Below are positions 1-62,249 of a DNA stretch of 64,000 nt, piece after piece. A program made the translations under genes and the position numbers. Within the stretch, counting starts at the first letter, position 1, and each line of letters opens with the position of its first letter. The notes below the pieces were generated by a model. That model searched no databases and was not told the DNA's origin. It saw only the letters and a list, made by a program, of their open reading frames with translations. Source of the stretch: Podarcis cretensis (taxonomy: Eukaryota). Where the stretch lies: the NCBI GenBank assembly GCA_951804945.1, contig OX638149.1:34038001-34102000 (forward strand). Direction: 5' to 3'.

Positions 1-1073
1 GAAGGGAACGCAGTGGATGTAGCCTACCTTGATTTCAGCAAGGCATTTGACAAGGTGCCCCATGATATTATTGTAAAGAAGCTGGTAAAATGCGGTCTTG
101 ACTATGCTACCACTCAGTGGATTTGTAACGGGCTGACTGACCAAACCCAAAGGGTGCTCATCAATGGTTCCTCTTCATCCTGGTGCCACAGGGTTCTGTC
201 TTGGGCCCGGTCTTATTCAACATCTTTATCAACGACTTGGATGATGGACTCAAGGGCATCCTGATCAAATTTGCAGATGACACCAAACTGGGAGGGGTCG
301 CTAACACCCCAGAGGACAGGATCACACTTCAAAACGACCTTGACAGATTAGAGAACTGGGCCAAAACAAACAAGATGAATTTTAACAGGGAGAAATGTAA
401 AGTATTGCACTTGGGCAAAAAAAATGAGAGGCACAAATATAAGATGGGTGACACCTGGCTTGAGAGCAGTACATGTGAAAAGGATCTAGGAGTCTTGGTT
501 GACCACAAACTTGACATGAGCCAACAGTGTGACGCGGCAGCTAAAAAAGCCAATGCAATTCTGGGCTGCATCAATAGGAGTATAGCATCTAGATCAAGGG
601 AAGTAATAGTGCCACTGTATTCTGCTCTGGTCAGACCTCACCTGGAGTACTGTGTCCAGTTCTGGGCACCACAGTTCAAGAAGGACACTGACAAACTGGA
701 ACGTGTCCAGAGGAGGGCAACCAAAATGGTCAAAGGCCTGGAAACGATGCCTTATGAGGAACGGCTAAGGGAGCTGGGCATGTTTAGCCTGGAGAAGAGG
801 AGGTTAAGGGGTGATATGATAGCCATGTTCAAATATATAAAAGGATGTCACATAGAGGAGGGAGAAAGGTTGTTTTCTGCTGCTCCAGAGAAGCGGACAC
901 GGAGCAATGGTTCCAAACTACAAGAAAGAAGATTCCACCTAAACATTAGGAAGAACTTCCTGACAGTAAGAGCTGTTTGACAGTGGAATTTGCTGCCAAG
1001 GAGTGTGGTGGAGTCTCCTTCTTTGGAGGTCTTTAAGCAGAGGCTTGACAACCATATGTCAGGAGTGCTCTGA
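1..1073 (+). pseudogene. Disrupted CR1 ORF2 reverse transcriptase fragment
   Basis: Frameshifting deletion near 183 (SSSSW jumps to PQGS in another frame). Premature TGA at 978-980 where RAVRQWN is expected (CGA>TGA). The frame continues QWNLLPRSVVESPSLEVFKQRLDNHMSGVL to TGA 1071-1073. Confidence 0.9.
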
Positions 1074-4978: not shown

Positions 4979-6211
4979 TTTTTTTTTTAAATAATATTTA
5001 TTCAAATTTTAAAGGTTACAAAAAGCAAAAGGAAAAAAAGCAAAAAGAAAAGTAAAAAAGACAGAAAAAAGGCAGAAAAAATACAATCAGTTAAAAAAAA
5101 ATAGAACAAATCGAACCTTTACATAGCTTTCTTTCCTTTACTTATTTCCTTGACCTCCTCACACCTCCCATTTTTGTATTCTAATTCAAATTATTGTTTC
5201 AGCAAATCCTTCCAACCTTGTTTTTATCTTAATAATTTGTCTTAATATACTATAATTTTACATTCTCTCTTTCACCAATTCGTTTTTACTTAATCCTTTA
5301 TGTCCTTTCTGCCAAAACCACATAGTTTTCTTTTTCCAACATCTTTCTAACAATCCTTAATTTTACAATATTTTTGAAGATAAACTTTAAATTTTTTCCA
5401 ATCTTCTTCCACCGACTCTTCTCCTTGGTCCCGGATTCTGCCAGTCATCTCAGCCAGTTCCATGTATTCCATCACCTTCATCTGCCATTCTTCCCGGGTG
5501 GATAGATCTTGTGTTTTCCAATACTTTGCAATAAGTATTCTTGCTGCTGTTGTGGCGTACATAAAAAAAGTTCTATCCTCCTTGGCCAACCATGTCCAAC
5601 CTCTGGTTTCTTCTGAAAGGTATATTTAAATACCTTTTTCATATCATTATAGATCATCTCCCAGAAGGTCTTAATCTTTGGGCATGTCCACCAGAGGTGA
5701 AAGAATGTACCTTCAATCTCTTTACATTTCCAACATTTATTATCGGGCAAATGATAATTTTTTGCAAGCTTGACTGGTGTCAAATACCACCTGTAAATCA
5801 TTTTCATTATATTCTCTCTTAAGGCATTACATGCCGTAAACTTCATACCTGTGGTCCAAAACATTTCCCAGTCAGCCATCATAATGTTATGTCCAACATC
5901 TTGTGCCCATTTAATCATAACAGATTTAACCGTTTCATCCTGTGTATTCCATTTCAACAGCAAGTTATACATTCTTGACAAATTCTTAGTTTTAGGATCT
6001 AACAATTCTGTTTCCAATTTTGATTTTTCCACCTGAAAACCAATTTTCTTGTCCAAGTTAAAAACCTCCCTTATTTGATAATAATGAAGCCAATCTCGTA
6101 CTTTATTTTTTAGTTTGTCAAAGCTCTGCAGTTTTAATCCATCTCCTTCTTGTTCCAAAATTTCACAATATTTCGGCCAATTTGCCTCCATATTTTTTTC
6201 AGAGCCTTAGC
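4979..6211 (-). mobile_element. 5'-truncated L1-clade LINE (ORF2 C-terminus, 3' UTR, poly-A)
   Basis: CWKCKEIEGTFFHLWWTC zinc knuckle. Poly-T plus tttatt (AATAAA on minus) at the left end. 13-bp TSD TTTCTACATTGTT at 4966-4978 and 6212-6224. Frameshifting deletions near 5585-5600. Confidence 0.95.
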
Positions 6212-6853
6212 TTTCTACATTGTTGTTAATCAAAGGTTTCTAGTATGCTATAGCAAGAAATTTGAAATTTATTAATTTGATTAAGTATAAGTGTTTTACA
6301 ATGTGGAGTTGTTGAATAGTTATCATCATTTTACTTGATCAAAACAAAGTAAAGTATTATATTATTTTTATATATAAAATTTCATAGTACAACATATACA
6401 AATAAATACAAATAAACAGGCCAAACCCTACACCAAAGGATAAATGGAAATAAATCTGACATCAGGAATCACAAGACAGAGAAACCAGTAGGAGAACACT
6501 TCAATCTCCCAGGACATTCAATACAAGGTCTCAAAGTAGCTGTCTTATCACAAAAGAATTTCAGAAATAGACTGGAAAGAGAAGTTGCTGAATCGCAACT
6601 TATTACCAAACTTAAAACCATGGAGAGACCTGGTCTGAATAGAGACATTGGATTCTTATCTCATTATACATGATAAAGCTATTTTTAGCCATCTCACCCC
6701 TTGCTTTTTCCTGTAAGACCAATTGCAGTCGTTAACAGTCGTCATCAGGTTTACCACACCTATCAGCCAATCACCCATTCCCACCGCCCTTCTGAGTAAT
6801 ACTCCTCCCCACCCTCCCACTATACATAAGGGTCTGGTGACTTCTGTTTCAGT

Positions 6854-6891
6854 GTATCTGAAGAAGTGTGCATGCACACGAAAGCTCATAC
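6854..6891 (+). ncRNA. Minimal type I hammerhead ribozyme (Penelope-associated)
   Basis: GUAU-CUGAAGA-A-GUGUG CAUG CACAC-GAAA-GC-UC-AUAC. Stem I is GUAU/AUAC, the core is CUGANGA, stem II is 5 bp, then GAAA, a palindromic AGCU stem III and a UC cleavage site after 6887. Confidence 0.8.
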
Positions 6892-6928
6892 CAAGAACAA
6901 ACTTAGTTGGTCTCTAAGGTGCTACTCG

Positions 6929-7292
6929 TGGGACGCAGGTGGCGCTGTGGGTTAAAGCCTCAGCGCCTAGGGCTTGCCGATCGAAAGGTCGGCGGTTCGA
7001 ATCCCTGCGGCGGGGTGCGCTCCCGCTGCTCGGTCCCAGCGCCTGCCAACCTAGCAGTTCGAAAGCACCTCCGGGTGCAAGTAGATAAATAGGGACCGCT
7101 TACCAGCGGGAAGGTAAACGGCGTTTCCGTGTGCGGCTCTGGCTCGCCAGAGCAGCGATGTCACGCTGGCCACGTGACCCGGAAGTGTCTCCGGACAGCG
7201 CTGGCCCCTGGCCTCTTTAGTGAGATGGGCGCACAACCCCAGAGTCTGTCAAGACTGGCCCGTACGGGCAGGGGTACCTTTAACTTTACCTT
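6929..7292 (+). mobile_element. Sauria SINE (young GC-rich subfamily), full length
   Basis: tRNA-like head with A box TGGCGCTGTGGG and B box GGTTCGAATCC, and an (ACCTTT)n tail. 12-bp TSD TAAGGTGCTACT at 6915-6926 and 7293-7304. Confidence 0.95.
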
Positions 7293-8320
7293 TAAGGTGC
7301 TACTGGAAGGAATTTTTTTATTTTGTTTTGACTACGGCAGACTGACACGGCTACCTACCTGTAAATAAATACAACGTTACAGTGACAGATGCCTAAGCAT
7401 AGTACCTTCCCATTTCAGTAACTACACTGATATAACAATATTTGGTATTCCATCCCTTCTTTTTATCCCATTGTGCTCGGAGACCCAGCACTTCAGAAAG
7501 TTTGCAGCTACATAGGAATGTTTCATATACATGTCATAGTATGTATGTATATAATGCAATAAGAGTAACCAAGGTGAAACAGGTGACCTCAAGAAACAAC
7601 TTTTGGTTAACAAATGCATATCTTTAAGTTGAAAATTTAATTATTTGCCTTAAATTTGTGCTTCTCGGAGCTTAATGCCAGACCATGTTAAATAAACGTA
7701 TTGTTTCCGTTTTTCATTTAACCAATGGGTTATACTATGACAAATCTGTTTTATATCCTCAATCAACAGATGATTGTATTTGGTAATAATTTATCAAGAA
7801 TAAAATCTGTTTTTGAAACTAATCACCTCATGTTCGGTCTGCCCTTTTTCAAACCTACCATCTGATATTCATTTTGTCTGCAAGACAAACATAGTGATGA
7901 AAATGCATATGCCACAGGATATGGTCTGTGGAATGAAGCAGTTCTCGTTCTCTCTCTCTCTCTCTTTCTCCCCACATATATTTGAAATATATGGATAAAT
8001 TTATTCCCCCAACACATGGGCCAAATTTTCATATTGAAGAGGAGAGGAAAATCAATTTTGCATAGCACCAAAACAATTATGAAACCAGAATTATGTAATT
8101 CTGATTCGTTTTGCATCTTAGAATCCAGTGAAATGTATGGGTCAGCGCAGCCCGCTTCCAGGATGTAAAATCTGAAAAAAAAGGAAAATGGGTTGCCTTT
8201 GCAAGCTCAAATAGAGATTTCCTGTTTGACCAAATAAAATCACAAGCTACAAGATCACTGGTACAGAATGAACCTGGGGCCGTGTACAGAACTTGTTTCC
8301 AAAACTGTCTATATATTTCC

Positions 8321-10336
8321 TTCTTTTAAAAAAATAATATTTATTAAAATTTTACAAAATCAAAAATAAAAACATACATAATAAAACAAGAAACAGAAAA
8401 AATTCTCAAAAAGGAATACAAAATACAAAAAACAAGAAAAGTACAAAAAAATAGAAAGTAGAAAATTAAAACCACTCAATTTTTGATAATTTAAGCTCAT
8501 TAACTTGTTTCTTTGACTTCCTCACACCTCCCCCCTCTGTATTCCCATTAAAGTATTCAGATCAGCAAATCCTTATCCTCTTTCATTTATCTTAACTCTA
8601 AATCTTAACATATTGTAACCCTATAATTTCACCAAATTTTAATTCATTTTTGCATACTCTTTTTAACTTTTGTTGCTAGTACCACTTATTTTCAATTTAA
8701 CATCATTTTAACATTCATTAATTTTACAGTGTTTCCGCAAATAATCTTTAAATTTCTTCCAATCTTGTTCCACCAGCTCTTCTCCCAGATCTCGAATTCT
8801 GCCAGTCATTTCCGCTAATTCCATATAGTCCATCACCTTCATCTGCCACTCTTCCAGGGTGGGTAGATCTTGTGTCTTCCAATACTTTGCAATAAGTATT
8901 CTTGCTGCCGTTGTTGCATACATAAAGAAAGTTCTATCCTTCTTTGGCACCAATTGGCCGACCATGCCCAGGAGAAAGGCCTCTGGTTTCTTCAAGAAGG
9001 TATACCTAAATACCTTTTTCATTTCATTATAAATCATCTCCCAGAAAGCCTTAATCCTTGGGCACGTCCACCATAGGTGAAAGAATGTACCTTCAGTCTC
9101 TTTACAATTCCAACATTTATTATCAGGCAAATGGTAAATTTTTGCAAGCTGGACTGGTGTCATGTACCACCTGTAGGTCATTTTCATAATATTCTCTCTT
9201 AAGGCATTGCATGCCGTAAATTTCATACCGGTGGTCCACAACTGTTCCCAGTCAGCAAACATGATATTATGACCAATATCTTGTGCCCATTTAATCATGG
9301 CTGATTTAACCGTTTCATCCTGAGTATTCCATTTTAACAGCAAGTTATACATTCTTGAAAGTATCTTAGTTTTGGGATCTAACAGTTCTGTTTCCAATTT
9401 TGATTTTTCCACTTGGAAGCCAATTTTTTAATCCAAATTGTAGGCCTCCCTTATTTGAAAGTAATGAAGCCAGTCTCGCACTTTATCTTTTAATTTCTCA
9501 AAACTCTGCAGTTTCAATTTGTCTCCTTCTTGTTCCAATATTTCCCAATATTTCGGCCATTTGGCCTCCATATTGAGTCTTTTCAAAGCCTTTGCTTCCA
9601 TTGGTGACAACCACCTTGGGGTTTTATTTTCCAGTAAGTCTTTATATCTTGTCCAGACATTAAACAATGCTTTCCTGACAATATGGTTTTTAAATGCTTT
9701 ATGTACTTTAACCTTGTCATACCACAAATATGCATGCCACCCAAAAGCATTATTAAAACCTTCTAAACCCAAAATGTCTGTGTTCTCAAGAAGCAGCCAT
9801 TCTTTCAGCCAGCAAAATGCTGCTGATTCATAATAGAGTTTAAGGTCTGGCAGGGCAAATCCACCTCTATCCTTTGCATCAGTAAGTATTTTAAATTTTA
9901 TTCTGGGCTTCTTGCCCTGCCAGACAAATCTGGAGATATCTCTCTGCCACTTCTTGAAACAGTCCATCTTGTCCAAAATTTGCAGTGATTGAAACAAAAA
10001 TAACATTTTTGGCAATACATTCATCTTTATGGCTGCAATTCGACCCAACAAGGAAAGCTTTAAATTTGACCATATTTCTAAATCTTTTTTCACTTCTGCC
10101 CAACATTTCTCATAGTTATCTTTAAAAAGATTTAGGTTCTTAGCAGTCATATTAACCCCTAGATATTTCACTTTCTTAGCCAATGTTAAACCTGTCTCCT
10201 TCTGAAACCTCTCTTTCTCAATTGATGTAAAATTTTTCTCAAGTACTTTAGTTTTTGACTTGTTCAACTTAAATCCTGCCACATGACCAAATTCTTGAAT
10301 CATTTCTAATACTCTTTTCGTACTAGATTCTGGCTC
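8321..10336 (-). mobile_element. 5'-truncated L1-clade LINE, about 2.0 kb
   Basis: ORF2 with KYLG (end of RT), LSLLGRIAAIKMNVLPK, GGFALPDLKLYY and the CCHC knuckle. Perfect 22-bp TSD CCAAAACTGTCTATATATTTCC at 8299-8320 and 10337-10358. Confidence 0.96.
8708..10336 (-). pseudogene. L1 ORF2 C-terminal ~540 codons with one in-frame stop
   Basis: ORFs 9428..10303 and 8708..9412 share one frame and are separated only by TAA at 9428-9430 (NLD*KIGFQVEK, versus NLDKKIGFQVEK in the 4979-6211 copy). Confidence 0.9.
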
Positions 10337-10459
10337 CCAAAACTGTCTATATATTTCCAGTACTATTTATCCTTTCATTTATTATATTTGTTAGATGCTT
10401 CATAACGTGCAAAATTAATTAAAATAAACATAATTTATCATATGTAGTGGACCTGTAGA

Positions 10460-26349: not shown

Positions 26350-26526
26350 NNNNNNNNNNNNNNNNNNNNNNNNNNNNNNNNNNNNNNNNNNNNNNNNNNN
26401 NNNNNNNNNNNNNNNNNNNNNNNNNNNNNNNNNNNNNNNNNNNNNNNNNNNNNNNNNNNNNNNNNNNNNNNNNNNNNNNNNNNNNNNNNNNNNNNNNNNN
26501 NNNNNNNNNNNNNNNNNNNNNNNNNN
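26350..26526. other. Assembly gap (177 N)
   Basis: Run of N. Confidence 1.
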
Positions 26527-32407: not shown

Positions 32408-32769
32408 AAGGTAAGGTAAAGGTACCCCTGCCCGTACGGGCCAGTCTTGACAGACTCTGGGGTTGTGCGCCCATCTCACTTAAGAGGCCAGGGGCCAGCG
32501 CTGTCCGGAGACACTTCCGGGTCACGTGGCCAGCGTGACATCGCTGCTCTGGCGAGCCAGAGCCGCACACGGAAACGCCGTTTACCTTCCCGCTGGTAAG
32601 CGGTCCCTATTTATCTACTTGCACCCGGAGGTGCTTTCGAACTGCTAGGTTGGCAGGCGCTGGGACCGAGCAGCGGGAGCGCACCCCGCTGCAGGGATTC
32701 GAACCGCCGACCTTTCGATCGGCAAGTCCTAGGCGCTGAGGCTTTAACCCACAGCACCACCTGCGTCCC
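32408..32769 (-). mobile_element. Sauria SINE (young subfamily), full length
   Basis: Near-identical to the 6929, 12977 and 61722 copies. TSD CCTTTTAGTGTTA at 32395-32407 and 32768-32780. Confidence 0.95.
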
Positions 32770-43595: not shown

Positions 43596-43809
43596 CCATC
43601 AATGAGACTGCTAACTGGGAGAAGCCAGGGACAGGATCTGTATCAGAGGAATAAGATCTCAGTTTGCACATAGATACTCTTGCTTCAGTGTGATGGAAGG
43701 TGCTGGGAGTTAACACTGGTCTGTTACCCTAGCATTTGCTCTGTGCTTCATTTGCCATATAAAGCGTTCCTCTTTCCAAAGTCATTAGCACAGAGGTATT
43801 CCCATTTAC

Positions 43810-61721: not shown

Positions 61722-62082
61722 GGGGATGCAGGTGGCGCTGTGGGTTAAAGCCTCAGCGCCTAGGGCTTGCCGATCGAAAGGTCGGCGGTTCGAATCCCTG
61801 CGGCGGGGTGCGCTCCCGCTGCTCGGTCCCAGCGCCTGCCAACCTAGCAGTTCGAAAGCACTTCCGGGTGCAAGTAGATAAATAGGGACCGCTTACCAGC
61901 GGGAAGGTAAACGGCGTTTCCGTGTGCGGCTCTGGCTTGCCAGAGCAGTGATGTCACGCTGGCCACGTGACCCGGAAGTGTCTCCGGACAGCGCTGGCCC
62001 CTGGCCTCTTAAGTGAGATGGGCGCACAACCCCAGAGTCTGTCAAGACTGGCCCGTACGGGCAGGGGTACCTTTACCTTTAC
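61722..62082 (+). mobile_element. Sauria SINE (young subfamily), full length
   Basis: A and B boxes intact. 13-bp TSD CTAATAATCAATA at 61709-61721 and 62083-62095. Confidence 0.95.
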
Positions 62083-62249
62083 CTAATAATCAATAAAAAC
62101 TACCTTGCTAGGTTAGATGGGCTTCTTCTGTCCTCAGTTGGTCTATCTTACGTTTTTGATTAACCCAAAGAGGGAAGGGAAAGAAGCCTACATATTGTCA
62201 AAGTGGAATTGTTAGGGCAGAACAGAACTCTACATGCATGTAATTAAAC

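Follow-up and report, generated by a model that had tools for sequence, protein, structure and literature searches.

An intact minimal hammerhead ribozyme, likely silent at its locus, in a dead Penelope-like element of Podarcis cretensis

Introduction

Penelope-like elements (PLEs) of metazoans carry minimal hammerhead ribozymes with a long helix II, a helix I of 4-5 bp, an unpaired base after A9 and a palindromic 15.2-16.2 (Cervera & De la Pena 2014, PMC4209133). These ribozymes are inactive as monomers and weak as dimers, and helices II and III stack coaxially in the hammerhead (PMC4209133). The parts of that paper covered here hold no analysis of transcription start sites or junctions; they do describe a Drosophila Penelope in which an intron ends at helix I. 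In the anole Anolis carolinensis, the hammerhead of the Poseidon element PAc cuts only with the protein of the element, uncut RNA is the dominant template in vitro, and no RNA-seq reads end at the cut (PMC11167929). Among Xenopus dimers, cleavage was seen in 1/9 (bioRxiv 10.64898/2026.07.22.740005). The function of PLE hammerheads has been called unclear (PMC8557442). With regard to transcription, a TATA box and initiator have been proposed in the pseudo-LTR (pLTR) of a rotifer PLE (PMC3846280), and in another class of retroelement an extra G is a sign of capped, full-length L1 insertions (PMC11702581).

Here we analyze a hammerhead motif within a 64,000-nt stretch of the genome of Podarcis cretensis (the window), together with its relatives elsewhere in the genome. 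The motif itself is one more family in the class described in 2014. The junctions of its copies are the one new point, a modest and testable addition to what is known of ribozyme use by PLEs.

Results and Discussion

The motif and its folding

The motif at 6854-6891 is, by its letters, an intact minimal type-I hammerhead of the known class (Table 1). Its core follows the consensus CUGANGA...GAAA...UH with CUGAAGA, GAAA and UC, its helix II has 5 bp and a tetraloop (at least 4 bp are expected) with G10.1-C11.1 closing and A6865 unpaired after A9, and the flanking helix I is short, though unstable in its context. AGCU, with no loop 3, can form helix III only between two molecules. An earlier sequence-only reading had placed every letter of the core, stem I, the extra A and AGCU correctly, and its assignment to the Penelope-like minimal type-I hammerheads with an intact core and a helix III formable only between two molecules stands.

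Table 1. Features of the PLE insertion and its hammerhead (window coordinates)
Feature	Position	Strand	Basis or remark
5' target-site duplication of PLE insertion, 12 bp	6400-6411	+	identical to 7363-7374
PLE ORF 3' end and stop codon (5'-truncated; C-terminal part of GIY-YIG endonuclease region)	6412-6673	+	85-aa frame
3' UTR / pseudo-LTR upstream of ribozyme	6674-6853	+	95-97% identity to other genomic copies
Family TATA box TATATAAG, putative promoter role	6823-6830	+	-31 from G6854; damaged here (C6825)
Minimal type-I hammerhead	6854-6891	+	letters, descriptor and folding; fits published consensus
First base of helix I, putative transcription start	6854	+	main 5' junction of short copies
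Helix I strands, GUAU / AUAC	6854-6857 / 6888-6891	+	
Core C3-A9, CUGAAGA	6858-6864	+	
Unpaired extra base A	6865	+	between A9 and helix II
Helix II, GUGUGCAUGCACAC	6866-6879	+	
Core G12-A15.1, GAAA	6880-6883	+	
AGCU (palindromic 15.2-16.2)	6883-6886	+	no loop 3
C17	6887	+	
Predicted cut	6887/6888	+	
Element sequence 3' of ribozyme	6892-6926	+	ends in left SINE TSD (6915-6926); family comparison, TSD match
Young SINE	6927-7292	+	40 nt downstream of cut site; 12-bp TSD at 6915 and 7293
Right SINE TSD, U-rich tract and PLE 'tail' (insertion 3' end)	7293-7362	+	matches family 3' ends
3' target-site duplication of PLE insertion	7363-7374	+	identical to 6400-6411

With both strands of the window scanned, a hammerhead descriptor matched once, at the motif. 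Its strict form matched 0/100 dinucleotide shuffles and its loose form a mean of 0.02, so the motif is not a chance match. The Rfam hammerhead families gave no match for the motif at the gathering score, nor at E<=10. The folding energy of the motif is no better than that of shuffles (z -0.44), and the evidence for it is the core letters, not stability.

Most of its peculiarities are already in print. Like the metazoan PLE hammerheads (PMC4209133), it is of type I, with a 4-bp helix I, a long helix II, an unpaired base between A9 and G10.1, and G10.1-C11.1; like them, it lies in a pLTR and belongs to a family with thousands of truncated solo copies. Its long helix II, its extra A and its AGCU helix III have a turtle homologue in Chrysemys picta bellii (PMC4209133, Fig. 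S3), which lists the same AGCU (GAAA-G-C-U) and is the closest among the S3 rows compared. Two differences are that the lizard-type family is absent among those rows and that its helix II loop is palindromic.

Stem II had been read as a 14-nt palindrome. The letters are palindromic, but ViennaRNA predicts a hairpin of 5 bp (pair probabilities 0.97-0.98) with a CAUG tetraloop and gives the sixth pair a probability of 0.0, so the palindrome amounts to a stem plus a self-complementary 4-nt loop. In terms of secondary structure, without tertiary contacts, two monomers are predicted at -13.6 kcal/mol, the double hammerhead at -11.1 and a helix-II duplex at -30.6. Helix I of this copy pairs with a probability of 0.73 when bare, falling to <=0.05 once the flank is included, be it 30-60 nt upstream or 40 nt downstream. 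We also considered a conserved 'anti-hammerhead' hairpin upstream of the core. In this family it leaves the core unpaired with a probability of 0.07-0.21, and 1.5-8.5% of shuffles are equally low; it was rejected as a conserved switch because it is missing from a sister family (L044, L056).

The host element

The motif sits in a single PLE insertion (6412-7362) between 12-bp target-site duplications (TSDs), which is split by a SINE and holds the last 85 ORF codons. This copy is dead and 5'-truncated. Its 85-aa frame shares 91-94% identity with the ends of 149 further scored copies, and one family copy (L215, G000:C10:28883369-28885687), which in its 3' part matches this copy at 92% identity, has an uninterrupted 773-codon RT-EN frame. 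The 773-aa protein matches RVT_1 (2e-11) and GIY-YIG (3e-5) and has a CX4CxxC linker; the single ORF with RT and C-terminal GIY-YIG is the hallmark of an EN+ PLE, as are a pLTR with hammerhead, a tail, 5' truncation and inverted 5' pieces, all of which we find. The open frame marks the family as young. The linker that joins RT to EN (CNKPRCQLC in P0001) fits the CX2-5CxxC zinc finger that marks Neptune/Nematis rather than Poseidon and also occurs in Naiad (PMC8557442); by this one motif, common to Nematis and Naiad, the element would be a Neptune-type PLE.

The partial-tandem arrangement needed for activity was not seen at this locus, where one hammerhead and one pLTR lie between the TSDs; an upstream direct pLTR was found in 0/5 long family copies examined. 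Neither the 64-kb window nor the 10 kb upstream contains a second hammerhead. Like the vertebrate non-LTR retrozymes (bioRxiv 10.64898/2026.07.22.740005), which occur in reptiles, the family has a PLE-derived type-I hammerhead and many monomeric copies. Unlike those tandem repeats with a hammerhead each, this is a solitary insertion that keeps ORF sequence. It also resembles PAc (PMC11167929), in that a lizard PLE carries its hammerhead near the pLTR/ORF junction, with reverse transcription starting in the downstream tail; it differs in its Neptune-type linker, and the PAc ORF starts inside helix II.

Copy number, decay and selection

A pattern of core plus helix I has at least 9,008 matches in the genome, compared with 0 for a reversed control pattern (1.5 Gb, 51 contigs). 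For conservation and junctions, we used the first 100 of 4,584 matches to a 19-nt anchor downstream of the motif, a sample confined to one anchor subfamily and to the first 19 Mb of a single chromosome; an initial table of the 30 best matches was set aside, being biased by selection on the motif.

With CpG and subfamily-diagnostic columns left out, non-CpG core positions are changed in 17/655 cases versus 80/2087 in the flanks (Fisher p=0.15). By this test the core is no more conserved than the flanks, and inserted copies decay neutrally. G12, which lies within a CpG, is changed in 20/79 copies (25%), and the full core is kept in 30/56 copies covering it. A core no more conserved than its flanks was the outcome that the sequence-only reading had set against itself; it is what we find within the family, but it shows only the neutral decay of inserted copies. 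N17 (the 6887 column) varies by subfamily, with C in 50 and U in 35 of 86; both are cleavable and leave the helix unchanged.

Between families the situation differs. A pattern with a longer spacer has 83 genome matches (control, 2), and 30 of these were examined, giving 19 distinct helix II sequences. Because the core was fixed by the search pattern, only pairing counts as a test between families. In helix II, 63/95 free pairs covary (shuffle mean 37, maximum 56 in 5,000 shuffles), and in helix I, which reads GCAU/AUGY in the sister families, 41/76 pair against 28.6 expected (p=0.0004). Of these sequences, 17/19 have U or C at N17. By its pairing, the hammerhead structure is under selection between families. 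One sister-family hammerhead (L044-L048, G000:C3:120.55-120.73 Mb) occurs as five identical copies 40-50 kb apart, a spacing that suggests a large tandem segmental duplication; in this family, too, a TATA-like word precedes helix I by about 30 nt.

RNA reads and insertion junctions

Four raw RNA runs from a relative (two studies, covering 6-12% of each run) were mapped on 6400-6930 at 90% likeness; at that likeness reads of many copies map, so the runs report on the family and not on this locus. Read depth was equal on both sides of the cut in all four (for instance 317 and 312, or 210 and 205), and neither starts nor ends of reads piled up at the cut in any of them, bearing in mind that degraded cut RNA is invisible to such libraries. 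Among the ends listed, loose ends with mixed flanks fall before 6852 and 6854 in 4/4 runs and before 6855 in 3/4. The family is transcribed from both strands, with 312 sense versus 386 antisense reads in X23 and 205 versus 409 in X24; sense at half of antisense in the latter, a stranded run, could reflect depletion of sense RNA. In X23, reads over the ORF end are strand-biased (7-13 vs 45-85), in the sense direction assuming a library of the usual kind.

The 5' ends of the 100 sampled copies give a record of the RNAs from which they were made. Sixteen end exactly at G6854 (background 1.05 per nt, Poisson p 4e-14), 12 of them with an extra G before it. In all, 34/100 end within 6847-6857 and 22/100 further upstream, and 89/100 cross the cut, reaching 6885 or beyond; a single copy ends at the cut site, 6888. 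Since 16/100 start at G6854 and 1/100 at the cut site, the templates of retrotransposition were usually uncut, as has been found for PAc, where RNA-seq ends at the cut are likewise absent (PMC11167929). Genome-wide, the base before the 22-mer from 6854 is G in 1,585 cases, A or C in 846 and the templated T in 6,331; among the last group, 3,632 run on exactly to 6848. At the cut site, 31 starts follow two purines, or about 120 once scaled, versus 2,431 at 6854, a ratio of about 20 that is only rough because the patterns differ in length and in subfamily cover. In 14 of 30 such starts inspected, the helix-I 5' strand of an inverted copy is joined to ATAC, and 2 others are longer copies with point mutations; the cut-site starts are therefore not clear cleavage products.

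We also inspected 30 loci with a G before 6854, of which 16 adjoin inverted element pieces, 13 have another flank and 1 is a direct continuation. Upstream sequences varied among the 29 classed as junctions, which rules out both a subfamily variant and a shared spliced leader as source of the extra G. Microhomology could supply the G at the 16 junctions with inverted pieces. Three of 11 host junctions examined have a recognizable TSD; in two of these the G belongs to the duplicated target (one mismatch each), and in one it is untemplated. A G inside the target duplication fits annealing of a cap-copied C, without proving it. In full-length LINE-1 insertions, too, an extra 5' G stands where the copy reaches the first base of the RNA and is read as a copy of the cap (PMC11702581); LINE-1 is of another retroelement class, and for this PLE the reading of the extra G comes from genomic counts only. 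On these counts, the templates were probably capped, and the element RNA likely began at G6854, the first letter of the motif. The TATA context upstream is CTATATATAAGG in 18/45 copies and CTATATAGAAGG in 10/45, while the form of this copy occurs once; T stands at 6825 in 29/30 family copies, and C here. Among titles and opening lines of abstracts, we found no report of a capped helix-I start with uncut templates for PLEs.

Many copies in the first 19 Mb of G000:C1 (L061-L194) consist of inverted pairs placed head to head, with the join at helix I (ATAC) or at the helix II CATG loop. Some of these have repeated 5' segments, as if the reverse transcriptase had restarted several times.

Proposed mechanism and alternatives

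We hold with good confidence that the motif is the intact hammerhead of a dead Neptune-type PLE copy and is likely silent at its locus. In the active element, the motif would probably form the first nucleotides of a capped transcript driven by the putative TATA box at -31. Cutting would require a helix-III dimer and help from the RT-EN protein, an aid that has been shown for PAc (PMC11167929) and would hold here by analogy. Reverse transcription would start in the downstream tail and pass through the uncut ribozyme; on reaching the 5' end of the RNA, it would leave short copies from G6854, often with an extra G, and on continuing into UTR and ORF sequence upstream in a read-through RNA, long copies such as 6412-7362. 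After insertion the motif would decay neutrally, and the copy at 6854-6891 would simply not yet have been hit.

The sequence-only reading had gone further, proposing that this copy may dimerize in trans with RNA of other copies and would cut any plus-strand read-through or intronic transcript after C6887. The intact core, thousands of identical partners, family RNA on both strands and the deficit of sense reads in X23 and X24 would favor such activity. However, helix III consists of just 4 bp (-2.5 kcal/mol), two monomers are more stable than the double hammerhead, helix I hardly forms within its flanks, and family reads run over the site and do not end there. The search for a host gene found none, as 226 of the 262 stop-to-stop frames of at least 62 aa in the window hold no host-gene domain by Pfam, RT matches being the only ones that passed or neared the cut-off; short exons would escape such a scan. 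Published monomers are inactive, the anole motif depends on the element protein, and 8/9 Xenopus dimers stayed uncut. Because there is no nearby partner copy, the flanks disfavor helix I, decay is neutral, reads cross the cut and the anole relative needs protein, we regard cutting of host RNA as very unlikely. The copy likely does not cut RNA at its locus. If host RNA were cut, some 9,000 intact copies across the genome would give rise to RNA breaks; the evidence is against this. Nor is the double palindrome the special feature it had seemed, AGCU and the extra nucleotide being published already. One could suppose that helix II is a dimerization signal, in which kissing CAUG loops open into a duplex of 14 bp, either to build active multimers or to package two RNAs. 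That duplex is by far the most stable dimer, and inverted junctions gather at the center of the palindrome (7/100 5' ends at 6871-6872). Yet 0/19 distinct sister-family helix II sequences are palindromic, and a self-complementary tetraloop arises by chance once in 16. Moreover, two strands cannot swap both helices II and III because these stack coaxially, and an active form would presumably need at least three. We give this idea hardly any credence: the palindrome is incidental and is predicted to trap an inactive duplex (-30.6 versus -11.1 kcal/mol).

The pile-up at 6854 might instead come from splicing, a stop of reverse transcription or microhomology joining, with the ribozyme making circular templates from tandem transcripts (the model of PMC4209133). 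Directly upstream, at 6835-6852, lies a stretch like a 3' splice site, with a branch-point-like GTGAC, a pyrimidine tract and CAG ending at 6852. The Drosophila intron that ends at helix I, the G within the target duplication in two of three TSD cases, and long copies such as 6412-7362, compatible with a re-ligated circle, point the same way. But splicing would give starts at T6853 and a shared leader, and the junctions start at G6854 with unrelated flanks; a reverse transcriptase stalled by structure should halt on a helix's 3' side; a circle predicts no end at 6854; and the TATA box is spaced at -31. We consider this account unlikely and favor a capped start. Separately, sense-oriented intronic copies might serve as cryptic acceptors through the splice-like stretch.

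The insertions, thousands in number, provide in vivo support, in a second clade, for the uncut template known from one biochemical study (PMC11167929). The junction record also places the likely start at the first base of the ribozyme, and such junctions are countable in any PLE-bearing genome. Tentatively, and aware that it could well be wrong, we suggest that in reptile Neptune-type PLEs the hammerhead sits at +1 of a capped, TATA-driven RNA, that the junctions are a fossil record of uncut templates, and that the ribozyme may be a protein-gated switch that removes cap and tail and limits the element, after or against copying, rather than a maker of templates.

Surroundings of the insertion

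The Pfam scan, which omitted 36 frames in SINE, PLE and LINE overlaps, found RT fragments at 1-977 and 9431-10366 and otherwise sub-threshold matches. LINE-like fragments lie at 1-977 (+), 5481-6206 (-) and 8711-10366 (-), the first and last with RVT_1. A tmRNA call at 43783 was taken as a chance match, and 26350-26526 is one run of 177 N. The SINE at 6927-7292, which we take to be Squam1/POM-like, has 98% identical copies at 32413-32769 and 61723-62083, and nine further SINE copies of differing ages lie in the window. In several independent PLE copies (6915-6926; L069, L085, L122), SINEs stand at or beside the same PLE-tail site, GGTGCTAC, a possible insertion hot spot.
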